DNA from: Stegostoma tigrinum
Lineage: Eukaryota
Assembly: GCF_030684315.1 (NCBI RefSeq)
Contig: NC_081356.1
Location: 29,971,197-30,035,196, forward strand
Reading direction: 5' to 3'
Length of the DNA: 64,000 bases
The notes under the pieces: generated by a model
Told to the model about the DNA's origin: nothing
What the model saw: the letters and a program-made list of their open reading frames with translations, nothing else
Databases searched by the model: none
In this document: positions 3,501 to 46,200 of the stretch, one piece after another
Position numbering within the stretch: the stretch's first letter is position 1
Layout of the letters: every line of letters begins with the position of its first letter
Made by a program: the position numbers and the translations under genes

Positions 3501-6500
3501 TTTTTAAAAAAACAAACTTTTAGAAGTATACACAAGATATAAAACAAATGGGATGATAACCTACTGTCAAATGCACGAGTTACTGGAATCTTGCATTGGG
3601 AGGAACAAGTGGACACATAGACAACCCCACTCTTCCTGGTCAAGGAAAGGTACTTTTTGCCAGATGATAAAAACTTTTTTAAAAATATAAACAGATAAGC
3701 AAATAAATTGAAGAATACTGTATTCTGCTTTTTCAGAACTAAAGTTTTCATCCAGCCAAGATTTTCATCATCCTTGTTAAATCATAAGCCACTTGAGGCT
3801 GGATATTCATTGAGCAGCAGCTAATCTTAAGACAAGGACCAAACCCTGCCTGCCATTCACTGCTGCATCTGTGTCCTTAATTTGTGAACTTTAACAGAAA
3901 AGATGGTCAAGGGTCAGTTAGTTATGAGAGAAGAGGCCAGACAGTGAGGTATAAATGGAGATGGTGATATTTAAAACAATGTTATATAGAGTGGGCCAAG
4001 TTAACCCTAATCAATTACTTTTCTTCCCGAGGCGTCAGAGGAGTTCACTGGAGTCACAGAGTTGCTGCTATTTTCTGCCTTATACCCATCTTTGGTCTTC
4101 TCTTTCTTCGCTTCAGGCTCAGAGTTAAATGTGTGATGCTGCCTTGGATTGGAGTCTTCAGTCTTCAGGTGTTTATTTGACACACTGGAGCCACTAAGTG
4201 GAGAAATCTCTTTCTGTGTCCTCTTTAGTGACAATGCGTCCCTGTCTGATGTCCCTTCTTCGAACCTTATGGTGTAGGGGTAGAGCCGATTGACAACATA
4301 AAGGTCCTGTCCTGGCTTTAACTTCACCTCTTGATCTCTTTTCAAGTCTTCAGAATTGACATTGCTTGGATTTACGCCCAACTTTAGGGTTACATGGTTA
4401 GGGGAGGGAAAGACAAAAAAAAAAGTTATTTTCCGGAACCTGTTGAGTACTTGCAATATTTTTTGTTTAGTTTTCATACCAATAACTTCCACAGAACCTT
4501 GCCTCAGAATTATTTGTCCAACTCTTTTGGGAGGAGGAGTTAATTGATTTTAAGCTTCATAAATGGCTCAGGAAAATTTTTAAAATGAAAACATATCATA
4601 AACACAACAGAACAGAGCCATAATACTTCAGTAAAGATTGAAGGATCCAGTCTTGTATATAAGTCCACCATTTAATCCTTTCAGAGAATTATTTTAATCA
4701 ATCAACTAGTAGGAAATTAATCAGTATTCAGAACAGAGTAATTATTCTTCATAGAATATGCATCTTAAAACAACAAGCAATCTTTTTGACAACCACACAA
4801 CCACCTCTTTAGTGTATTATGTTAATGATTGATTTATGCACTGTAATGCCATACTTAAGAAGTTAATTGCCCAGGGATCTCATTGTTTGAAACAGTCATC
4901 TCATTCACCTTTGCTTTCTCCCTTTCAGGTATTTATCCAATTCCCTTTTGAAAGTTACTTTTGAATCTGTTACCACCACTCTTCAGGCAGAACATTTTAG
5001 ATCATTAACCATTGCTTTAGAAATAAATCAATCACCTTGCTCCAAGTTCTTTTGCCAATTCTGTGGTGATTATTTAGATTTGTATCCTAATTACCAACAG
5101 TCCTGAGAGGAAAGCAGTTTCTCTTGATCAAATCTGCTCATACATTTGAGCAGATCTGTTAAATACATAACAGTGAAAAAAAGCAAACCAGAGATACTTA
5201 CCTGTTTTACAAGAACATATCCCTTATTGTAATCTGCTTTCAGCTGTACTGGAAAACAACAGTACAAAAATGGTAACATTAATTTTCTACATCCATCTAA
5301 ATTCCATTTTAATTTCTTAATATATCCCTTCATCTCAAATGTGAGCCAGGGCAAGAATACTATTAATAGAATTGTTGATAATTTTTAAAAAAAAAAATCA
5401 TAGAGTGAACAAACAAGGTGAGTACATTCAGCCTACCAAGCAAATGCCAGCTCTTTGTAATTAGTAAAATTCAATGGATTATATTTTCATTCTCACACTT
5501 CATGCTGCCAAATCTAAATACATAAAACAATAATAAAAATTGGAAGTATAAACAGTAATAAAATTTCTGCATGTCCCAGGACTCATCAGTATGTCATAAA
5601 AGTTGGAAATCCCAAAGATTAATGACGTACAACCGGCCCCCACAACAAACTTGTAGCATGGATTAGAAAGTTTATCCAATGAGATATCAGTGAAACCGCC
5701 AAAGTAAACTTCCAGGTTCAATCCACAGTCTTTGTTCAGCCAGAACAGTAGCAGATGGACTATGACTGGTCTCACTATAGGTTACGAATAAGTCATCTTT
5801 TCAAGATCATGAAAAACAGGAGCGGGGTATGCAGCCTTTTGAAAATTCTCCACTAGCCAAAAGGTCACATCACAGCTGATCTGACTGTGGCCTGAGCTCC
5901 ACTTTCTTGCCTGACTCTTATCCCGCTCATTCCTTGACTGCTTTTTCAATCAAAAATCTATTATTCAGCCTGAAATATATTCAATGAAAAGCCTCCACGG
6001 CTCACTGGAGGAAGGAAATTCCATCGTAAATTGAACCTTTACTTTGTAGCTCTCGATTCCCTCATGAAAGAAAGTATCCTTTCAGCGTCTAGCTCATCAA
6101 GTCGCCAAAACATCTAATATGAATGTGGATTTCACCAGCTTCAAAATCTCCCTCCCCCCACTGCATCCCAGAACCAGCCCAGCTCGTCCCAGCCTCCCTA
6201 ACCTGTTCTTCCTCTCACCTATCCCCTCCTCCCACCTCAAGCCACACCTCCATTTCCTACTTACTAACCTCATCCCACCCCCTTGACCTATCCCCTCCCT
6301 ACCTCCCCACCCATACTCTTCTCTCCACCCATCTTCAGTCCACCTCCCTACTTATTTCAGAATCTTCTCCCCATCCCACTTTTCTGATGAAGGGTCTAGG
6401 CCCGAAACATCAGCTTTTGTGCTCCTAAGATGCTGCTTAGCCTGCTAAGTTCATCCAGCCCCACACTTAGTTATCTAATATGGAACGTTCTGCTTAATGT

Positions 6501-43200: not shown

Positions 43201-46200
43201 ATTTAAGAGACTGCTGGACATGCATATGGTCACAGAAATTTGAGGGTGCATACATGAGGATCAATGGTCGGCACAACATTGTGGGCTGAAGGGCCTGTTC
43301 TGTGCTGTACTGTTCTATGTTCTATGTTCTATGTTCAATCTGCAGGACAAGTAGGATCATAATGGTTGGATGATATCAATTACCCAACAGTTGATTGGGA
43401 AGAAGGTAGACCATGGGGCACAAGAGCAGGGTATTCTGCAATATACGCAGGAGAACTTTCTGGAACAGGATATTTCCAGTGCTATTAGGATGGAACAGCA
43501 CTGAATCCGCTTCTAGGAAATGAACCAGACCAAGTGGAGAATGTCAGAGTGGCGGAGCATTTGGGAAATAGTGATAATAAGTTTCAACATTAAGTCGGAA
43601 AAAAAAAAGTCAGTGACTAAGATCGCAGACCAGAAAAGGGCAATTTTAGGGATGAGAAAATTGAACTGGAGGAGGTTGATTTTGATGGATAAAACAATTG
43701 ATGAAAAATGGGAGAACTTCAAAGAGATGAACAGGTACATGCTAGTATATACTCGTGAGAAAATAAGGAAGTGAAAAGAAGCATGTGATTCATTCCAGAA
43801 TAATAACAGCAATAGAAATCAGGAAGAGAACCTAAGCTGGAAGAAGAAAGGCTAAAAGGAAGTATAAGGATGGCAGGTTGCACTAAAACAATGAGTAAAA
43901 TGTTCTTCAAATATGCCAACATTAAAACATCAGAAGCACAGAATGGGGCCCATAACAAACAAGGAAGGGAAGCTGCTCACCTGAATAAAGGGATTGGCAG
44001 AAGTACTACTTGAAAACTTTGCTTCTGTCTTTACCAAATTAGAAAATGACAACAACAGCCTTTGAGAATGTGGGTGCTCAGCAGTATGGTGATCAAAGAG
44101 AGGTGCTAAAAAGGCTGCCAGTACTCCAAGCTAGATAAGTCATCAGGCCCAGATGGAATGCATCTTTGATTAGTGAGAGGGGTAAGGGATCAAATTGCAG
44201 AGCCATTGACAGAACTTTTCCAGGCGTCGCTGAACATTGAATTAATTCAAAGGGATTAGAGGACAGCAAATGTGACAGTGTTGTTTCAGAAAGCTGCAAA
44301 GGATAACTCATGAAACTATAGACTTGCCAGTTTGACATCACTAGTGGGAAAACTGATGAAGCTGATGGAGAATACAATTTGGGCTAAGGTTAATATACAT
44401 TTAAGTTAATAATGGACAGTCAACATAGCTTTGTTAAGGACAGATTATGTCTGACAAATTTGACTTGCAGAAAGCATTTGCTACAGTGCCACAGGGCAGG
44501 TTGGTTAGAAATTTAGAAATGCTTGAGATTGATGGGTCCTTGGCAACATGAATTAGAAGTTGACTAAAAAGGGAATAGAGGACATATGTTGATGGGCATT
44601 TCTCAGATTGGAGACAAGTTGAAAGTCATGCGCCCAGGAATGGGTTAGGACGCTAGATAACAAAGTGTGGAGCTGGATGAACACAGCAGGCCAAGCAGTG
44701 TCTCAGGAGCACAAAAGCTGATGTTTCGGGCCAGACCCTTCATCAGAGAGGGGGATGGGGAGAGGGTTCTAGAATAAATACGGAGAGAGGGGGAGGCGGA
44801 CCGAAGATGGAGAGAAAAAGAAGATAGGTGGAGAGGAGAGTATAGGTGGGGAGTCCAGGGAAGACGGACAGGTCAAGGAGGCGGGATGAGGTTAGTAGGT
44901 AGGAAACGGAGTTGTGGCTTGAGGTGGGAGGAAGGGATAGGTGAGAGGAAGAACAGGTTAGGGAGGCGGGGACAAGCTGGGCTGGTTTTGGGATGCAGTG
45001 GGGGAAGGGGAGATTTTGAAGCTTGTGAGGTCCACATTGATACTATTGGGCAGTAGGGTACCCAAGCGGAATATATGAGTTGCTGTTCCTGCAACCTTCG
45101 AGTGGCATCACTGTGGCACTGCAGGAGGCCCATGATGGACACGTCATCTGAGGAATGGGAGGGGGAGTTAAAATGGTTCGCGACTGGGAGGTGCAGTTGT
45201 TTGTTGCGAACTGAGCGGAGGTGTTCTGCAAAGCAGTCCCCAAGCCTCCGCTTGGTTTCCCCAATGTAGAGGAAGCCACACCGGGTACAGTGGATGCAGT
45301 AAACCACACTGGCAGATGTGCAGGTGAACATCTGCTTAATATGGAAAGTCATTTTGGGGCCTGGGATGAGGGTGAGGGAGGTGGTTTGGGGGCAAGTGTA
45401 GCACTTCCTGCGGTTGCAGAGGAAGGTGCCGGGTGTGGTGGGGTTGGAGGGGAGTGTGGAGCGGACAAGGGAGTCACGGAGAGTGTGGTCTCTCCGGAAA
45501 GCAGACAGGGGTGGGGATGGAAAAATGGCTTGGGTGGTGGGGTCGGATTGTAAATGGCGAAAGTGTCGGAGGATGATGCGTTGTATCCGGAGGTTGGTGG
45601 GGTGGTGTGTGAGAACGAGGGGGATCCTCTTTGGGCGGTTGTGGTGGGGGCGGGGTGTGAGGGATGTGTTGCGGGAAATGCCGGAGACGCGGTCAAGGGC
45701 ATTCTCGACCACTGCGGGGGGAAGTTGCGGTCCTTGAAGGACGTGGACATCTGGGAATGTGCAGGAGTGAAATGCCTCATCCTGGGAGCAGATGCGGCAG
45801 AGGCGGAGGAATTGGGTATAGGGGATGGAATTTTTGCAGGAGGGTGGGTGGGAGGACGTGTATTCTAGGAAGCTGTTGGAGTCAGTGAACTTGAAATGGA
45901 CATCAGTTCTTAGCTGGTTACCTGAGATGGAGACTGAGAGGTCCAGGAAGGTGAGGAATGTGTTGGAGATGGCCCAGGTGAACTTGAGGTTGGGGTGGAA
46001 GGTGTTGGTGAAGCTTTTTTCTGATTTGTATGAATGATTTGGATTTCTCCCTTATCCCGGGGGCATGGTTATGGAAGGAAGAAACAAAACGCATTTCGTC
46101 TCTGCTGAATCACTCCTGTACATGCGTCCTATCTAACAAACCAGTAACTTGAGCATGGCACTGAAATTGACATAGTAAATTCCTCCAATCCATATTGCAT

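Follow-up and report, generated by a model that had tools for sequence, protein, structure and literature searches.

Short hammerhead-bearing copies in a Stegostoma tigrinum window: probable end-fragments of Neptune-type Penelope-like elements

Introduction

Are the short hammerhead-bearing copies scattered through this locus a mobile population of their own, or debris of the Penelope-like element (PLE) that ends in the same module? The window, that is, the whole stretch of 64,000 nt analysed here, comes from Stegostoma tigrinum (GCF_030684315.1, NC_081356.1:29,971,197-30,035,196, forward strand). A first-pass annotation had described a dispersed family of ORF-less mini-elements, derived from PLE pLTRs and mobilised as a non-autonomous, SINE- or retrozyme-like population. 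Our analysis points elsewhere: the copies are probably end-fragments of several Neptune-type PLE subfamilies, produced by the PLE's own reverse transcriptase (RT) and GIY-YIG endonuclease (EN) from its own RNA.

Copies of the module

An nhmmer profile made from 7 module copies detected 16 arms at 13.2-103.5 bits (top score among 10 control sequences, 8.4 bits). A covariance model added an arm at 31326-31371 (E 4e-4), and another at 20495-20584 was recognised by inspection, giving 18 arms in 13 insertions in the window. These scattered pieces, mostly about 100-200 bases long, fall into four subfamilies or groups labelled A, B, C and D:

6122..6476, + strand: truncated copy of 355 bp, subfamily A; ORF tip, UTR and hammerhead with C3 at 6384
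8510..8604, + strand: solo pLTR, subfamily B; begins at the core, GAAA broken
8858..9022, no single strand: palindromic insertion, subfamily B; 29-nt inverted arm, direct arm and 34-nt tail
9146..9216, - strand: coreless diverged copy, group D; nhmmer 20.6 bits
20495..20683, no single strand: decayed palindrome, subfamily C; direct arm (20591) with a core deletion and without stem II
22440..23475 (left edge approximate), + strand: second, older 5'-truncated PLE; RT thumb, YIG-like motif
23594..23793, no single strand: palindrome, subfamily B; two arms, tail on the inverted arm
28241..28362, + strand: solo pLTR with tail, subfamily B; cut within the core, 13-bp target-site duplication (TSD)
28673..28879, no single strand: palindrome, subfamily C; both cores damaged
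29252..29350, - strand: solo pLTR, subfamily A; core 29346-29319 fully intact
31200..31440 (edges approximate), + strand: subfamily C copy, very degenerate; what remains of the core lies near 31336
35609..35757, no single strand: coreless palindrome, subfamily B; only the right arm has the tail, CUGANGA in neither arm
44654..46015, - strand: 5'-truncated Neptune-type PLE, subfamily A; RT thumb, CxxxxCxxC linker, GIY-YIG with CCHH; ORF about 46015-45068 with frameshifts, C/T-rich UTR, hammerhead 44746-44720, end at 3' site 1

The earlier count of about eleven copies of one module was borne out, a homologous module being present at 11 of 11 cited places. The copies at 9146..9216 and 31200..31440 had been missed, and so had the head-to-head, palindromic layout of five insertions. 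Lying behind a C/T-rich tract, 31200..31440 is probably a longer truncated copy. Other CUGANGA..GAAA matches in the window were rejected for want of stem II, with the exception of 12569.

Identity of the parent element

The annotation placed the module at the end of a GIY-YIG Penelope element at 44655-46013, and this proved correct: at 44654-46015(-) it terminates an element whose ORF holds an RT thumb and GIY-YIG. Among the 17 homologues of this ORF, annotated as RT plus GIY-YIG and reaching 900 aa, the best gave E 6e-78. The alignment retains Y-G-E-T together with the C, C, H and H positions, and the CxxxxCxxC linker occupies query residues 199-207, between RT and EN. The RT core is absent from the window copy, and a direct Pfam scan of the ORF fragment returned 0 families. 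A CX2-5CxxC linker between RT and EN is a criterion for Neptune that is common to Nematis too (PMC8557442); the earlier Neptune-type assignment fits the linker, a type also found in Nematis. Judged by its sequence, the parent is an EN+ PLE, in which a PLE-type RT is fused to a C-terminal GIY-YIG with CCHH.

Two more copies join the module to coding sequence. At 6122..6476 the core is intact apart from a G16.2 to A change, and 6122-6476 is 82% identical to 44654-45045. The older element at 22440..23475 carries numerous stops and shifts, is supported by tblastn (E 3e-6), tblastx (E 2e-14) and HMM (E 6.5e-10) matches, and terminates in a degenerate subfamily C module at 23377. The module terminates both ORF-bearing parents as well as the ORF-tip copy, which supports the proposed origin from PLE pLTRs: it forms the 3' terminus (pLTR) of a Neptune-type PLE. 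The description of all copies as ORF-less fails for 6384, 23378 and 44720, which are ends of longer truncated PLEs; 6122-6476 consists of an ORF tip and 3' UTR, and 23378 belongs to a decayed PLE. Both ORF copies are 5'-truncated, and the window contains no full-length or partial-tandem pLTR-ORF-pLTR copy. Solo 29346, of subfamily A, groups with the two ORF-linked copies (support 0.945); it is 88-90% identical to them, and they are 91% identical to each other.

Hammerhead core and structure

A strict core pattern, CTGANGAAGGGTC..GRCCYGAAAYRT, matched five times in the window versus 0 times in 100 shuffles. The annotation's core claim stands for these five of the 11 cited copies and fails for the remaining six: the core as stated is intact at 6384, 8891, 23713, 29346 and 44746 only, and GAAACGUC, the C15.2/G16.2 palindrome, is retained at 8891 and 29346 only. 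Counted by arm, CUGANGA, GAAA and the NUH core occur in 5/18, and together with palindromic ACGU in 2/18. The core bears substitutions at 8511, 23377, 28783 and 28770, a deletion at 20591 and a truncation at 28241. The collapsed core reported at 35610 does not exist; what stands at 35642-35656 is tail sequence in reverse complement, within a coreless palindrome.

The module fits the published minimal hammerhead consensus, in agreement with its earlier classification as a minimal type I motif. The loops TA, TC, CT and ACCG and the 2-bp stem I of the TAGG group were likewise as described. Stem II, closed by G10.1-C11.1, is paired in 94.5% of cells across 11 arms; stem I is paired in 66% of cells, measures 2-3 bp in A/B and is readable as 5 bp at 28783. 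The covariation proposed as a check on stem II was absent: 0 of 5 pairs change on both sides, and the score was equalled or exceeded in 300 of 500 shuffles, a comparison of low power because it draws on only 11 closely related sequences. A search of the window against Rfam, another check proposed, gave eight matches up to E 10, with no hammerhead family among them. RNAalifold gave no consensus structure for 12 A/B/D arms, single-copy folding z-scores of -0.66 to +1.25 (7/7 sequences) indicated no unusual stability, and the hammerhead fold lay 5-35 kcal/mol above the minimum-energy fold in all five pattern-matching copies. The annotation had itself listed absent stem II covariation as grounds for abandoning its proposal; the sample here is small.

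Ends of the insertions

TSDs of 10-15 bp were found at 4 of 13 tested loci, and a score of at least 10 was reached in 0 of 150 random pairs; at the other nine loci none was found. Among the loci tested was 12569 but not 31331, and the left bounds taken for 23378 were wrong. Besides that at 28241..28362, the TSDs measure 10-12 bp at 6122..6476, 15 bp at 8858..9022, where the duplication encloses the whole insertion and the direct arm has a fully intact core (C3 at 8891), and an exact 11 bp at 29252..29350, which sits in a CR1-like LINE fragment. A 9-bp candidate at 8510..8604 was not above chance, and a search at 44654..46015(-) found none. The TSDs at these four loci support insertion by retrotransposition, as the annotation had assumed.

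Measured from the first core base, subfamilies A and B have two fixed 3' ends, about 93 and about 127 nt downstream. Seven arms stop at site 1 and the other four run on to site 2, so that 4 of 11 A/B arms examined carry a 3' tail of 31-34 nt. In 3/3 subfamily B palindromes the tail is confined to one arm. At 23594..23793 it is carried by the inverted arm, which starts within the core; the direct arm (C3 at 23713) has intact core nucleotides and no tail. The sequence at the putative RT start site is pyrimidine-rich.

At the other end, six of the 13 insertions begin within 10 nt of each other, by the ribozyme's 5' edge (one count per insertion, offsets assigned by hand), and this boundary occurs in three subfamilies. 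The clustering has P of about 1e-4 under wide truncation models and of 0.05 under a steep short-length model. A preferred 5' boundary exists with moderate support, which depends on the null model. The 5' ends are found upstream of the core, not at the cleavage site, the nearest to it being one arm at about +25, and no 3' splice site was found at the boundary in subfamily A (nearest AG about 22 nt upstream). The copies span the cleavage site and include the uncut ribozyme.

It is very improbable that the copies are true non-LTR retrozymes spreading via self-cleaved circular RNAs. Such elements are reported in one chondrichthyan and as pLTR-derived in Xenopus (bioRxiv 10.64898/2026.07.22.740005), and the type I hammerhead motif and pLTR origin found here would suit them, as would the fact that metazoan retrozymes (PMC7229834; bioRxiv 10.64898/2026.07.22.740005) are non-coding and also occur as monomers. 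However, those consist of repeats of about 170-400 nt arranged in tandem, have canonical hammerheads and form circular RNAs, whereas the window holds units of about 100 nt with minimal hammerheads and mostly broken cores, which do not start at the cleavage site. There is no head-to-tail unit and no pair of adjacent same-strand units, and Tandem Repeats Finder gave just two short arrays in the window, both unrelated. The lack of tandem arrays and Pol III boxes and the inclusion of uncut ribozyme argue that the copies are not retrozymes.

Origin of the short copies

Head-to-head palindromes make up 5 of the 13 insertions, each with an inverted 5'-truncated copy. At 28673..28879 both arms begin 3-5 nt upstream of the core and are identical at 90 of 103 columns. 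The junctions of the five palindromes are all different, which argues against a common master copy. A general strand mutation bias does not explain the G.T excess in the palindromes (27 vs 23).

Full insertions, consisting of inverted pLTR, pLTR, ORF and pLTR, could also have lost their ORF through recombination of the direct pLTRs. The TSD-flanked palindrome 8858-9022 corresponds to the canonical structure of PMC3846280 minus its body, and that study suggests that solo pLTRs lacking TSDs come from recombination or deletion. We nevertheless regard this route as quite unlikely here: the homology is only about 100 bp, several arms begin within or beyond the core, and mutation-accumulation lines acquire short inserts de novo (PMC9977147).

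A form of the annotation's own view, in which solo pLTRs or palindromes, chiefly of subfamily B, are transcribed and then re-inserted in trans by the PLE protein as a non-autonomous family, is unlikely. In its favour, there are solos flanked by TSDs, a preferred 5' boundary exists, none of the five subfamily B insertions in the window is ORF-linked, and a palindrome bears the RT start region on both strands. Rotifer pLTRs sufficed for mobilisation in trans (PMC3846280), and non-autonomous Chlamys PLEs are known (PMC8557442, PMC9977147). Against this, the five palindromes have no junction in common, the A solo nests with ORF-linked copies, and one boundary across three subfamilies would require three masters. 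A separate SINE- or retrozyme-like population is not supported: there are no tandem units, the tRNA count in the window is 0, a B box occurs in 0 of 15 arms scanned, and two loose A-box matches both lie at or past the 3' end.

On the best reading, the copies were instead made by the PLE's own reverse transcriptase and were dead on arrival. The endonuclease would nick AT-rich DNA and leave the 10-15-bp duplications observed. RT would begin at one of two fixed internal sites, as the two 3' ends and work on an anole PLE suggest, and would read through the uncut hammerhead, consistent with copies that span the cleavage site. It would mostly halt early, often at the ribozyme's 5' edge, where the clustering lends moderate support; run-off at the transcript 5' end or a stall at the ribozyme edge may be the cause. 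A second, inverted short copy, present in 5 of 13 events, would be joined head-to-head, and the inserts would subsequently decay. The copies would then be neither ribozyme-driven nor self-propagating, and the ribozyme would be relevant, if ever, in the active parent. Points against this explanation are the 5' clustering, subfamily B without an ORF-linked copy, the 9/13 loci without a TSD, the scope of 64 kb, and the non-autonomous PLE families known elsewhere (PMC8557442, PMC9977147).

A tentative and unlikely extension is that the clustered 5' boundary is the PLE transcript start. RT would start about 100-135 nt from the RNA 5' end and run off, giving a 'strong-stop'-like solo pLTR; our search of the open-access literature found no such model. 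Were this unit to keep the transcription start, no terminator would be required and self re-copying would be possible, which would amount to a PLE-driven SINE equivalent without a Pol III head or tandem. Clustered 5' ends that held genome-wide and matched a transcription start would record, in fossil form, the unsolved replication cycle of PLEs; they would also account for the constant pLTR length and for the lone hammerheads that fish and amphibian genomes carry in their thousands.

Comparison with known systems

Dispersed single hammerheads from truncated PLEs were already published in 2014. Single minimal hammerheads are widespread and were regarded, together with close opposite-strand pairs, as probably connected with truncated PLEs (PMC4209133); the coelacanth and Xenopus genomes hold 4,000-9,000 hammerheads each. 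Like the copies here, they are chiefly dispersed singles and such pairs, follow a U-rich / CUGANGAH / G..C stem II / GAAA-N-N-U-H consensus, leave position 9.1 unpaired and lack a stem III loop. Stem II is 4-5 bp here versus 7-8 in Schistosoma; the 2-3-bp stem I of A/B has a counterpart of 2 bp in D. virilis. One supplement file of that set yielded no shark entry.

EN+ PLEs of Neptune/Nematis type (PMC8557442, PMC3846280) share with this locus the C-terminal GIY-YIG, the CX2-5CxxC linker, heavy 5' truncation, an inverted 5'-truncated copy, TSDs, solo pLTRs and an optional 30-40-bp tail at one end (also PMC11167929). Unlike them, most insertions here are terminal structures alone. In Chlamydomonas, 5' truncation leaves new PLE insertions with a median length of 128 bp (PMC9977147). 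The anole Poseidon element PAc (Frangieh et al. 2024, PMC11167929) likewise has a tail from two RT start sites, AT-rich targets and uncleaved RNA as template, which is the dominant PLE template in vitro; its ribozyme cleaves only when protein is present. PAc belongs to a different clade without a Zn linker, and its start site is AC-rich, not pyrimidine-rich as here.

The copies are thus a local example of already known PLE debris, and they urge caution in two respects: motif searches score dead end-fragments as ribozymes, and antisense tail may imitate a core. A scan of genome contigs gave one match (L001), which was left unused; its motif resembles a hammerhead, its tail is unrelated, and BLAST aligned no part of it with the window. 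The solo pLTR at 29252..29350 lies antisense within a DNAJA1 intron.

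Module copies and their parent element

The module, the 3' end (pLTR) of a putatively Neptune-type Penelope-like element (PLE) with a minimal type I hammerhead motif, was found at all 11 positions cited in the first-pass annotation, far beyond chance. Using an nhmmer profile built from seven of the window's own copies, we detected 16 arms (single module copies) at 13.2 bits or more, versus a control maximum of 8.4 in ten shuffles. A strict core pattern matched five times, versus none in 100 shuffles. Adding two weaker arms gave 18 arms in 13 insertions of one arm or two head-to-head arms, which sort into groups A, B and C and one divergent D. 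The core is far less intact than annotated: CUGANGA and GAAA are retained in 5 of 18 arms and GAAACGUC in two. The 'collapsed core' at 35610 is in fact the antisense of tail sequence within a coreless palindrome. The short copies had been called ORF-less, which does not apply to three of the 11, since they end longer PLE copies:

44654-46015, longer PLE copy with terminal module
6122-6476, longer PLE copy with terminal module
about 22440-23475, second decayed PLE, terminating at 23378

The ORF at 46015-45068 was missed by a Pfam search alone. It aligns with RT-GIY-YIG proteins of 890-900 aa and keeps the endonuclease residues and a CxxxxCxxC linker, a type described as a mark of the Neptune and Nematis clades (PMC8557442). 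Judged by this linker, which Nematis shares, the parent is probably Neptune-type. The closest named relative of the protein comes from Chiloscyllium punctatum (60% identity over 59% of the query), a hint, short of proof, that the DNA is from a cartilaginous fish.

Ends of the insertions

Among 11 A and B arms examined, seven end at one 3' site and four at a second site 31-34 nt beyond; all three B palindromes carry this extension on one arm only. The extension is the PLE tail as described previously (PMC8557442, PMC3846280), which has been linked to two internal RT start sites (PMC11167929). Head-to-head palindromes make up 5 of the 13 insertions, and their junctions all differ. Target-site duplications of 10-15 bp surround 6122-6476, 8858-9022, 28241-28362 and 29252-29350, with scores equalled by none of 150 random pairs; at 9 of 13 loci tested, none above chance was found.

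The 5' starts of six of the 13 insertions fall between 5 nt before the core and 3 nt inside it, and a seventh lies at about -12. With offsets assigned by hand, this clustering has P about 1e-4 under wide truncation models and 0.05 under a steep one, which is realistic because the median reported for PLE insertions arising de novo in Chlamydomonas is 128 bp (PMC9977147). The clustered starts lie upstream of the ribozyme and not at the cleavage site 28 nt downstream; the templates were therefore uncut RNA, as also described in vitro (PMC11167929). The combined reading, in which the clustering marks run-off at the transcript start and such solos (lone ORF-less pLTR copies) can also re-copy themselves, is possible but unlikely.

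Read on the + strand, 24 mismatches between arms are G.T and only 4 are A.C (post hoc P 2e-4) across palindromes 8858-9022, 20495-20683, 23594-23793, 28673-28879 and 35609-35757; a consensus-polarised count over 11 arms gave no general strand bias (27 versus 23). In 28673-28879 the outer 63 nt (28673-28735/28817-28879) are 98% complementary and the inner hammerhead part about 84%, perhaps through arm-to-arm conversion.

Origin of the short copies

We consider it fairly probable that the short copies are dead-on-arrival products made directly by the autonomous element. After a nick in AT-rich DNA, RT would begin internally at either of two sites; the uncut ribozyme would be copied through, copying would stop early, an inverted partner would often be added, and the inserts would decay. 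The first-pass annotation recognized a real feature, but overstated it as a non-autonomous, SINE/retrozyme-like family mobilised by the element. A family distinct from the autonomous PLE would fit the clustered 5' ends and the B group, where none of five insertions in the window is ORF-linked; however, the A solo at 29252-29350(-) clusters with ORF-linked copies (support 0.945), a Pol III B box is absent from all 15 arms scanned, no tRNA was found and palindrome junctions are never shared, and we regard such a family as improbable. ORF loss by recombination between pLTRs seems less probable still. Retrozymes are defined by tandem units in published descriptions (PMC7229834; bioRxiv 10.64898/2026.07.22.740005); no same-strand adjacent unit for dimerisation lies beside any copy in the window, and true retrozymes are scarcely credible here. 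Lone minimal hammerheads by the thousand, and close opposite-strand pairs, are described as truncated PLEs, vertebrates included (PMC4209133); the window's copies are of this known kind. Whale shark introns are likewise reported to abound in PLE-like repeats (10.1101/443036).

Ribozyme motif

The motif conforms to the metazoan PLE hammerhead consensus given in PMC4209133. Across 11 close sequences, 94.5% of stem II cells can pair. The proposed check for covariation gave no support: none of five pairs changes on both sides and the score was matched by 300 of 500 shuffles, weak evidence either way with sequences this close. Self-cleavage by the genomic copies is unlikely because stem I is short in groups A and B (2-3 bp), a protein-free monomer model puts the hammerhead fold of the five pattern-matching copies 5-35 kcal/mol higher than their minimum-energy fold, the suggested Rfam search returned no hammerhead match in the window, and a dimer partner is lacking. 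By analogy, the ancestral parent was likely active.

A second, unrelated minimal hammerhead occurs once in the window, at 12569-12602 (+), with intact CUGAUGA and GAAA, 6/7 bp in stem II, 5 bp in stem I and an A/C-rich tract following; it is possibly a Penelope/Poseidon-type pLTR remnant. Another minimal hammerhead-like motif, its tail unrelated to our module, lies at 2269-2300 of L001, a short contig in a bacterial genome bin and possibly eukaryotic repeat DNA.

Genomic setting

Aprataxin exons (342-4549, minus strand) and DNAJA1 coding exons (25845-34769, plus strand) form a divergently oriented pair, and stretches richer in CpG (8-10 kb and 20-22 kb) may be their promoters. The two fully intact cores lie antisense to DNAJA1 (29346) and opposite to aprataxin (8891), numbers too small for interpretation. 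The window is also rich in CR1-like LINE fragments, among them:

16859-19975, +, decayed near-full CR1-like LINE copy with esterase-like ORF1, APE and RT pieces
41726-43243, +, CR1-like LINE with a 505-aa open RT fragment
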